A stretch of 64,000 nucleotides of DNA, taken from contig JAFUGK010000015.1 in NCBI GenBank assembly GCA_017469445.1, forward strand, positions 75,964 through 139,963, written 5' to 3'. A model generated the notes under the pieces. The model was not told where the DNA came from. It worked only from the letters and a program-made list of their open reading frames with translations, and did no database searches. How positions within the stretch are numbered: the first letter of the stretch is position 1; each line of letters starts with the position of its first letter. The position numbers and the translations under genes were made by a program. Below are positions 58,231-59,367 of the stretch, one piece after another. Origin of the DNA: Clostridia bacterium (GTDB lineage Bacteria > Bacillota > Clostridia > TANB77 > CAG-508).

Positions 58231-59367
58231 TTATTGGATTAAAGACTTAGATACTGTTATAACTGGGCGGACCCCACTGTAGTCGCCGTAGTTGTAGCGG
58301 TCGCTGCCCAAGAGGCCGCGGTCGCCATACACATTCCACACGTTGTTGTCGGACTCATAAGCAGAAGAAAGCCAATAATATAAGTAATTGCCACCATCAT
58401 TAGTATTAGCTGTTCCATTTATCATTGCTCCATAACTACTTTGTAATTCATTTGCTTCTTCATATGTTAATAATCTTCCTTCTGCTCCAGAACCTATTGT
58501 GCTTGTTGCATAATCTCTTGCTCTCATTATTGCATTATTTGCTTTTGTTTGTGTAGGGTCAGCTGCTGCTGCCACAGCATCTGTTGTATATGTGTTTAAA
58601 TTCATTCTTGTTCCTTCTACCCAATCACTGCTCCAATAGTTTGTACTTGAAAATGCACATTTTGTTTCGCTATATGCTGCATTTGGTTTTTGATAATATT
58701 TTCCTGTTGTTGCATCGTTTGGATCTGGATCTTTATCTAAATTGTATTTTGCAAGCAATGTTACATTTCCTGCCTGATTTGTATTGTCATCTATTAATAC
58801 ATAAAAACTTTCTGCTACTGTTTCTGTTCCTTTTGTTACATTTATTGTTACTTCTTGTCCTAATCTATATGTTCCTCCCCATATTGCATATAAGGTTCCA
58901 CTTTCACTTACTTCATCTCCTGGTGCATACATTGTTCCACTTCCATCAGCTTCTGTATTCCATCCTTTAAATCCATTTCCTAATGGAGCAACAAATCCAT
59001 AATTTATATTTCCTGTTCCTCCATTTGCATTATACGTTATTTCTGCTCCTGATGTTGCTACTACTGCAGTTGGCTGTAGTGGTACTACTGGTGTATCATC
59101 ATCGTCGTCATCATCTCCAGTTTCATTATTATTTGCACTCTCTCCCATGTATTTTGCAAATAAGTTTTCTACTTGATTTAATACCTCTTGGTCTGCATTT
59201 GCTGATGAATTATATTCCTCTACTGCATAATTTGCATTGTCTATTATGCTACTATTTCCTGTTAATGTTGCTAGTGCTACTCCTGCTAATATTAATAATA
59301 CTATTATCGTTATTACTAATGCTATTAATGTGATACCTTTTTGATTTGTTTTTCTTGCGTGTTTCAT
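58231..59367 (-). CDS. DGR variable target protein 2: pilin-like TM (KGITLIALVITIIVLLILAGVA), Flg_new repeat, C-type-lectin/DUF1566-like domain ending in VR2
   Basis: Intact 378-aa ORF. Flg_new motif ITYNANGGTGNINYGF...FKGWNTEADGSGTMYAPGD...LYAIW. CLec-like EGRLLTYEEANELQ...YYWLSS...GVRPVITV. Confidence 0.8.
   Translation of the reverse strand: MKHARKTNQKGITLIALVITIIVLLILAGVALATLTGNSSIIDNANYAVEEYNSSANADQEVLNQVENLFAKYMGESANNNETGDDDDDDDTPVVPLQPTAVVATSGAEITYNANGGTGNINYGFVAPLGNGFKGWNTEADGSGTMYAPGDEVSESGTLYAIWGGTYRLGQEVTINVTKGTETVAESFYVLIDDNTNQAGNVTLLAKYNLDKDPDPNDATTGKYYQKPNAAYSETKCAFSSTNYWSSDWVEGTRMNLNTYTTDAVAAAADPTQTKANNAIMRARDYATSTIGSGAEGRLLTYEEANELQSSYGAMINGTANTNDGGNYLYYWLSSAYESDNNVWNVYGDRGLLGSDRYNYGDYSGVRPVITVSKSLIQ
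58263..58373 (-). repeat. DGR variable repeat VR2
   Basis: Differs from TR at 21 positions, all at TR adenines on the coding strand, plus one 3-nt indel. Invariant 3' end is GGGGTCCGCCCAG. Confidence 0.85.

Follow-up and report, generated by a model that had tools for sequence, protein, structure and literature searches.

A diversified protein with a pilin-like N-terminus

The DNA considered here (the window) is a stretch of 64,000 nucleotides from a Clostridia bacterium (contig JAFUGK010000015.1, positions 75,964 to 139,963), and contains a diversity-generating retroelement (DGR) with two target genes, referred to below as targets 1 and 2. Target 1 (58231..59367) encodes a protein of 378 aa that is 100% identical to MBQ9298599.1 (IJ223_06220; P0001), from a metagenome-assembled genome (MAG) of a ruminant gut survey, in which it lies on a 477-kb contig. 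The protein combines a pilin-like N-terminal module with a diversified C-terminal domain of C-type-lectin (CLec) fold, and below we describe the evidence that it is probably a type IV pilin carrying a variable domain as cargo. The G+C content of the window is 28% and nearly all genes are on the minus strand, as are all the genes and gene features for which window coordinates are given.

The original prediction held that a DGR diversifies both targets, and this is borne out by the location of each component and by the pattern of substitution. The template repeat (TR; 57907..58019, minus strand, 113 nt) is rich in AAC codons and can be aligned with both variable repeats, VR1 in target 1 (58263..58372, 110 nt) and VR2 in target 2 (54205..54326, 122 nt). 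All 21 substitutions between TR and VR1 are at TR adenines, and VR1 has in addition one 3-nt deletion; of the 25 substitutions in VR2, 24 are at adenine sites and one is not, and VR2 is longer than TR by 9 nt, inserted as two in-frame blocks. TR and the two VRs are thus of unequal length, the differences being multiples of 3 in every case and located in AAC-repeat tracts; they could reflect slippage of the reverse transcriptase (RT) on the AAC repeat or the derivation of VR2 from another version of the TR. In target 1, the varied codons specify 16 residues between positions 337 and 364. Orthologues from other samples have unrelated VR residues at the aligned positions, which hints at ongoing diversification.

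The RT gene (55796..56950) is recognised by a match to Pfam RVT_1 (5.3e-13) and by its position beside the TR and the gene for the accessory protein Avd (56934..57278), which itself matches Pfam bAvd with an E value of 1.7e-8, although below threshold in score (35.3 against 40 bits). RT and Avd are encoded within 2.5 kb, and the two marks of a DGR variable protein, differences at TR adenines and a DGR-type RT nearby, are both present. Between the TR and Avd there is a reading frame of 166 aa (57271..57771) that consists of MutS domain I only (Pfam MutS_I, 1.2e-9). MutS domain I is a mismatch-binding domain. Such genes form the MSL class of DGR accessory, which is rare (16 of 372 DGRs) and always found together with avd (PMC5758913). 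On the 3' side of VR1 a GC-rich hairpin, AGGTGCT-A-GTTTCT GGA AGAAAC AGCACCT (58178..58207), is predicted by DNA folding of 58150..58240 (-17.8 kcal/mol, z -3.8) and resembles the target-recognition hairpin or cruciform of other DGRs. Targets 1 and 2 are identical for 53 nt past the VR and then diverge, VR2 being without the hairpin.

Domain architecture of target 1

Target 1 starts with a leader of class III type, MKHARKTNQKG (residues 1-11, 59335..59367), for which a prepilin-peptidase site is predicted after Gly11. The N-terminus can be written MKHARKTNQK-G-ITLIALVITIIVLLILAGV, with Gly at -1 and Ala (A16) at +5, so that the prepilin-like start with Ala in place of Glu that had been proposed is confirmed for this protein. 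Both features of a class III signal peptide are seen, a short basic leader with Gly or Ala at -1 and about 20 hydrophobic residues following it. The leader forms part of a pilin module (residues 1-75, 59143..59367), in which a hydrophobic alpha1N segment of some 24 residues, ITLIALVITIIVLLILAGVALATL, is succeeded by a second helix; in the AlphaFold2 (AF2) model, which has a mean predicted local distance difference test (pLDDT) score of 83.6, the two helices span residues 7-36 and 41-73. An acidic linker follows (residues 76-95, ETGDDDDDDDTPVVP, 59083..59142), predicted to be disordered, with pLDDT below 50 for residues 75-95. It leads to a beta domain resembling the Flg_new or Listeria-Bacteroides repeat (residues ~96-163, 58879..59082) and finally to a putative ligand-binding domain (residues 165-378, 58234..58875) made up of a small beta subdomain and a CLec fold. 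A modular pilin has been defined as a pilin module followed by a domain that is not specific to pilus biology (PMC8179133). With its pilin module, linker, Flg_new domain and CLec fold, target 1 is a modular pilin in the sense of Raynaud et al. (2021); the match to IPR012902, by which such proteins are recognised operationally, is only sub-threshold.

The two C-terminal domains had likewise been foreseen, and each is upheld in part. The Flg_new repeat (PF09479, cut-off 27 bits) is clear in target 2 (41.6 bits) and in a paralog of 530 aa encoded elsewhere in the window (32.5 bits), and weak in target 1 (15.5 bits), where the region aligns with that of target 2 and is modelled as beta strands. 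For the C-terminal domain, in which pLDDT is above 90 across most of residues 165-378, structure prediction yields the CLec fold that was proposed. The best fold match is the IgA protease of Thomasclavelia ramosa (9qa6; score 9.3), followed by the C-terminal domain of Legionella Lcl, of the DUF1566 family (8.3), and the DGR variable protein TvpA (7.4); FGE/EgtB-type domains (5.9-7.1), dozens of animal C-type lectin domains (about 6) and Mtd (5.6) are also matched. Foldseek ranked Lcl first, though weakly. The likeness to DUF1566 is structural, in that neither target matches the Pfam family (PF07603) at E<=0.1.

The reading frame of target 2

Target 2 (54173..55268) has the same architecture as target 1, with one peculiarity at its N-terminus. 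The ATG (55268) and the leader MKITKEMR are in one frame and the pilin motif GITLIALV is in the +1 frame, in which a TGA lies just upstream; the first canonical start in the pilin frame is a GTG (55207) inside the hydrophobic helix, and only the 344-aa part that begins there is annotated by NCBI (MBQ9298595.1). It follows that the original prediction, according to which target 2 begins with the motif, does not hold for the gene as it would conventionally be read. At the junction (55235..55270) the sequence is AGA-C-GGA, with which CGG would occupy the A site, Gly-1 being encoded in the +1 frame.

Two explanations can be offered. The junction may be the site of a programmed +1 frameshift, with CGG as the hungry codon, and it coincides exactly with the predicted prepilin cleavage site; CGG is the rarest Arg codon of the window (3 of 14,527), as would fit such a shift. 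AGA-CGG-A recurs at this point in two other orthologues, found in different samples, namely L021/L022 (7940..7975 in L021) and L023 (~400..440), despite differences in the leader (MKNTKAIR and MKITKEMR), and in each it is followed by an intact frame of 354-358 codons. Moreover, the stretch from the junction to the first in-frame start shows three synonymous and no non-synonymous changes when the window is compared with L023. Against this must be set the idea that target 2 is a decaying pseudogene, which arose by duplication of target 1 and is neither expressed as a pilin nor diversified any longer. We regard this as a serious possibility, only somewhat short of an even chance: besides the leader being out of register with the pilin frame, the non-adenine change and 9-nt excess of VR2 over the TR and the loss of the hairpin after VR2 would all be expected of a gene in decay, and a serine recombinase gene nearby is also split. 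A conserved junction, long open frames and purely synonymous change are not readily accommodated by it.

A large family of pilin modules without Glu5

The relationship of the N-terminal module to known pilins is detectable, if barely, by standard searches. Residues 7-32 of target 1 fall just short of the Pfam N_methyl cut-off (PF07963; 19.5 against 21.2 bits), and a sequence search of the PDB with the whole protein gave only weak matches, to the N-termini of geopilins (7tgg/9egp, E 0.06; KGFTLIELLIVVAIIGILAAIA aligned with KGITLIALVITIIVLLILAGVA), and none for the C-terminus. Positions -1 to +19 hardly vary, either among 85 non-identical homologues or among another 129 cluster representatives: residue -1 is Gly in 69 and Ala in 16 of the former, and Gly in 128 and Ala in one of the latter. 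Leaders are mostly of 6-11 aa, with Lys frequent at -5 and -2. At +5 the residue is Ala in 81/85 and 122/129 relatives, respectively, and never Glu. To judge from these alignments, the motif is conserved far beyond what a generic membrane anchor would show.

When used alone as a query against a library of 1.84 billion representatives, the pilin module matches 16,172 clusters of 50% identity at E<=1e-3. The matches to the family, which number more than 6,000, bear varied C-terminal modules, including leucine-rich repeat (LRR), Flg_new and lectin-fold domains, and also occur in tandem arrays. The pilin module is therefore a general display scaffold in this lineage, which in many paralogs carries LRR, Flg_new or non-diversified lectin-fold modules. 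The family lies just below the N_methyl and IPR012902 thresholds because it is without Glu5, and for this reason it has probably been missed by surveys of pilins and of modular pilins.

A stand-alone pilin in a type IV pilus operon

The family is connected with pilus genes through those of its members that stand alone, as proteins of 71-81 residues. Two of them (P0131 and P0134) are encoded directly upstream of a gene with an A24_N_bact domain. On long contigs with P0134 this gene is followed by those for a 285-aa protein, two T2SSE ATPases and a T2SSF protein, and a PilM/N-like protein of 539 aa and two small membrane proteins are encoded upstream; the local gene order is shared by P0125, whose contig is short and breaks off within the PilD-like gene downstream of it. 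Stand-alone members are thus associated with a prepilin-peptidase-like gene, assembly ATPases and a platform protein. In the neighbourhoods of the modular members P0002, P0039, P0118 and P0023 there are no pilus genes, and most of these neighbourhoods are also without an RT.

An operon of this kind very probably belongs to the same MAG as the window. A search with the PilD-like protein led to P0288, whose cluster includes MBQ9297481.1, "MAG: prepilin peptidase [Clostridia bacterium]". P0288 is on contig k141_341843 of assembly ERZ27256838, from which the window contig (k141_227631) also comes. The operon is taken to be from the same organism because of this shared assembly, the accession range and the G+C content: MBQ9297481.1 and MBQ9298599.1 are ~1,100 accessions apart, which fits one MAG in which locus tag 06220 is approximately the 1,244th gene, and the operon contig has 28.3% G+C against 28% for the window. 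Both contigs also co-occur in one other assembly of the same ruminant series (ERZ28653759). The operon (locus L018, 6874..15787) encodes PilM/N-like, pilin, PilD-like, PilB, PilT and PilC proteins, the pilin gene being directly upstream of that for the PilD-like protein. Of the two ATPases, one is PilB-like and the other belongs to the PilT family (above the NCBIfam cut-off for PilT); NCBIfam leaves the pilin, the PilD-like protein and the PilM/N/O-like proteins without a name.

The pilin of this operon is a helix-only, Glu5-less protein of 81 aa that starts MKEQKGITLVALVITIIVLLILAGVALATLTGNTSIIDNANNAVERYNAQAGNDQNIINQVDNLFRKYLG (N_methyl, 19.8 bits). It shares 53 of 67 positions (79% identity) with residues 9-75 of target 1, and its identity to target 2 is 70%, in both cases across the two helices. 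The pilin and the modular proteins diverge exactly at the end of helix 2; the C-terminus of the pilin must therefore tolerate extension. Because of this identity across both helices, the N-terminus of the DGR targets is, as far as sequence comparison can establish it, a copy of the lineage's own pilin and not simply pilin-like.

Some features of the operon are atypical: PilM and PilN are fused, PilC is encoded in two reading frames, and the PilT retraction ATPase is present. A gene for a protein of 281 aa specifies an N-terminus of the form G-I-(D/E)-I-A-I, with the acidic residue at +2 instead of +5.

Incorporation into pili or a membrane anchor

We consider it probable, with a good measure of reserve, that target 1 is a modular type IV pilin that is incorporated in pili, at the tip or in the shaft, and bears a DGR-diversified domain of CLec fold as its cargo. 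The prepilin would enter the membrane and lose its leader through cleavage after Gly11 by the PilD-like enzyme; the pilus machine would then incorporate the pilin module alongside the short 81-aa pilin. Placement at the tip is conceivable in that a subunit without Glu5 can cap a filament; placement in the shaft would be consistent with the near identity of the module to the putative major subunit and with a flexible linker. Either way, the variable binding domain would be pushed through the cell wall and away from the cell, and mutagenic retrohoming, by rewriting the 16 codons within residues 337-364 on the binding face, would change its ligand specificity.

A number of observations weigh against this scheme. 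Glu5 is normally important in the assembly of bacterial pili, and it is missing from every member of the family, the putative major pilin included. A globular alpha-beta head is missing from the AF2 model of the module; helix-only pilins are known, geopilin being one. The only match of the PilD-like protein is to A24_N_bact, an N-terminal zinc-ribbon domain, Peptidase_A24 (PF01478) being undetected by Pfam; conservation extends to an acidic residue at position 127 and to Glu129 but not to Asp185, the equivalent of the GxGD aspartate, and the peptidase activity of the protein is therefore uncertain. The genes for modular proteins are scattered outside the pilus operon. The 81-aa protein is a putative major pilin by virtue of its position, and the assignment of its operon to the same MAG is based on assembly, accession range and G+C content rather than on a closed genome. 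It should also be noted that DGR CLec domains bind varied ligands; 'lectin' denotes here the fold seen in the model, and sugar binding is not implied.

Alternatively, the pilin-derived N-terminus, whether cleaved or not, might be a mere single-pass anchor co-opted from a pilin, and the protein a membrane-tethered lectin that is never polymerised. The scattering of dozens of paralogs per genome outside the pilus operon, the missing Glu5 and pilin head and the atypical peptidase half of the PilD-like protein would all be in keeping with this, and it is textbook knowledge that unassembled pilins reside in the membrane. We regard this as the main rival and nevertheless as the less likely reading, since a mere anchor needs neither near-invariance from Gly-1 to +19 nor 79% identity to the operon pilin that continues through the second helix. 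In addition, the alpha1C signatures of the modular proteins appear to track those of their own short pilin, GN(S/T)SIIDNAN in the present organism and GQGNIIGNAEN in the L012 group. A further consideration is that the organism is a monoderm, in which a membrane-tethered ectodomain of 300 aa on a linker of 20 aa would hardly clear the wall. It is very improbable that the segment is instead a conventional Sec signal peptide, which signal peptidase I would remove (e.g. after A-L-A33) to release a soluble diversified lectin: an A-L-A motif does end the hydrophobic stretch of target 1, and signal peptides of Gram-positive organisms are long, but the family has no conserved AXA site (S-I-S, T-L-S, S-I-N and others are found at the positions equivalent to A-L-A33), the hydrophobic stretch extends over ~24 residues, conservation is highest where this stretch starts (-1 to +19) and not at the supposed cleavage site, and the whole segment is homologous to a pilin encoded beside a prepilin-peptidase-like gene.

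Display on pili accordingly remains the reading that we prefer for target 1. The core of the original prediction, a family of ligand-binding proteins at the cell surface, is supported by the Glu5-less N-terminus, the CLec model and pilin homology over 70 residues; its term 'surface-anchored' is probably too weak, display on a pilus being more likely. It is tempting to go further and to propose, as a tentative possibility that we would put at clearly less than even, that Clostridia of the rumen and gut possess an undescribed subtype of type IV filament. It would be built from a helix-only pilin of ~75 residues without Glu5 and processed by a PilD-like enzyme without the GxGD half, and would serve as a universal display scaffold for dozens of adhesin-module paralogs per genome, some of them hypermutated by a mobile DGR and one gated by a +1 frameshift. 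Were this so, it would be a pilus with a programmable repertoire of displayed binding domains.

Relation to known systems

DGRs are densest in gut microbiomes, and to our knowledge the route by which most Firmicutes DGR targets reach the surface has rarely been worked out. In the present case, a DGR target is linked to a concrete delivery route, in the form of a type IV pilin module and, very probably, a cognate pilus machine in the same genome; at the same time, a very large pilin family is exposed, comprising over 16,000 clusters at 50% identity. Should these proteins be assembled into pili, it would mean that bacterial type IV filaments could do without Glu5, and that there is a natural display platform with built-in targeted mutagenesis, of relevance to the ecology of adhesion in the rumen and gut and to protein engineering.

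Each of the two themes combined here is known separately: CLec-fold DGR targets, the MSL accessory gene, modular pilins and the DGR-diversified type V adhesins of Bacteroides have all been described. What is probably new is the fusion of a type IV pilin module to a DGR-hypermutated lectin-fold domain. A literature search retrieved no paper that joins DGRs with prepilins or contains the GITLIAL motif, and type IV pilins appeared only in passing remarks; a "GspG-type pilin" domain is mentioned among rare VR-bearing domains (PMC11661182), and PMC6642488 credits Paul et al. (2017) with the observation of "putative pilin structures" among DUF1566 targets.

The closest parallels on the pilus side are the modular pilins of Streptococcus sanguinis, PilB with a vWA module and PilC with a ConA-like lectin module (PMC8179133, PMC9934059). 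With these, and with modular pilins across InterPro, target 1 shares the order of class III signal peptide module, linker and (here putative) ligand-binding module; a monoderm host, lectin-type cargo and a short pilin moiety are further points in common with S. sanguinis. The idea of tip placement is also applicable: in the modular-pilin concept of the Pelicic laboratory, the filament tip is the presumed location of subunits that are bulky or lack Glu5, because no subunit above them needs charge neutralisation (PMC8179133, PMC9934059). Unlike the streptococcal proteins, the present module has neither Glu5 nor a beta head, is below the N_methyl/IPR012902 threshold, and has ~80% identity with the putative major pilin; the genes, of which there are many, are scattered outside the pil operon, and the cargo is a DGR-hypermutated CLec fold. 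Absence of Glu5 is otherwise known from the filament-capping subunits GspK and S. sanguinis PilA, but these are single specialised minor subunits, whereas here it extends to a whole family, the stand-alone pilin of the operon included. The PilA-N geopilin of Geobacter, the source of the only PDB sequence match, is similar in being essentially alpha-helical and differs in having Phe1 and Glu5.

On the DGR side, target 1 resembles Mtd of a Bordetella phage, TvpA of Treponema denticola and the DUF1566-type LdtA of Legionella in having the VR at the C-terminus of a CLec domain, an AAC-rich TR, adenine-specific changes, adjoining genes for Avd and RT, a GC-rich end to the VR and a downstream hairpin, and shares an MSL accessory gene with the Legionella DGR (PMC5758913). 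It differs in that no Pfam match to FGE-sulfatase or DUF1566 is found in the targets, and in its mode of delivery: Mtd is at the tip of a phage tail fibre and TvpA and LdtA are lipoproteins, whereas a type IV pilin module would perform this role here. The nearest conceptual precedent is in Bacteroides, where DGRs diversify the tip adhesins of type V pili (Macadangdang et al., bioRxiv 10.1101/2024.11.15.621889). In both cases the bacterium is a host-associated anaerobe and the DGR diversifies an adhesive component of a pilus, presumptively so in ours; the Bacteroides pili are, in contrast, of type V, assembled by strand exchange in a diderm, and the phylum is different.

Genomic context and related loci

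The window is chromosomal, as is evident from genes such as rpsF-ssb-rpsR, gltX, RNase J, feoB and metK with its SAM riboswitch, together with a long cluster for polysaccharide synthesis. From ~54.1 kb to the end of the window it is occupied by a small integrated element with target 2, RT, Avd, the MutS-domain-I reading frame, the TR, target 1, a Mob_Pre relaxase gene and a split gene for a large serine recombinase. The DGR cassette is thus carried by a small integrated mobilisable element that adjoins metK. Searches against plasmid DNA and phage proteins found no similarity. The recombinase is encoded in two overlapping reading frames (61514..63266), the first part comprising Resolvase and Recombinase domains and the second a zinc ribbon and coiled coil; the element may be immobilised by this split. 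An intact homologue of 604 aa is encoded elsewhere on the same contig (L005). The SAM-I riboswitch (53972..54076, minus strand; Rfam RF00162, 74 bits) upstream of metK marks the chromosomal edge, right beside the stop codon of target 2, and the interval separating target 2 from the RT gene contains an AT-rich inverted repeat (55531..55634) with 44-nt arms, 89% complementary, and a loop of 16 nt.

Two further window genes had been proposed as paralogs. The 530-aa protein (18103..19695), which is not diversified and combines a pilin module of the same type with Flg_new, carries the N-terminal motif as expected (NRGITLIALVVTIVIMLILAG), and matches N_methyl (19.2 bits) and TIGR01710 GspG (9.3e-5). 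The membership of the 140-aa protein (8638..9060) is doubtful: its N-terminus, SGISVIVLV in SGISVIVLVIAIVV, follows the motif loosely (BLAST E 9e-6 without composition correction), with Val at +5, and it has no Pfam match. Elsewhere in the same organism there is a tandem array of four further modular pilins. On the same 477-kb contig, at ~260 kb in the record, a protein of 376 aa (P0002; L005 10001..11131) has the full architecture and is 75% identical to target 1; its gene neighbours are a toxin-antitoxin pair and ABC transporters. It was considered as a third target of the TR and rejected, its 3' end differing at many non-adenine positions and by indels. With no match to the TR in P0002, the architecture evidently exists both with and without DGR control in one genome.

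Related arrangements are found in other genomes. In one of 25% G+C (L008, 10001..12780), two tandem family members of 307 aa have identical GC-rich, VR-like 3' ends (GGGGTTCGCCCAG); there is no RT within 10 kb, and a DGR may act on them from a distance or in trans. A scan of genome contigs with the C-terminal pattern gave one locus, in another rumen Clostridia MAG (L006, 8707..12370). Here the lectin-fold module lies within larger reading frames, and the upstream gene encodes a protein of 394 aa that has dockerin-like repeats and a signal peptide of the usual kind. The binding module therefore moves between different contexts of surface display.

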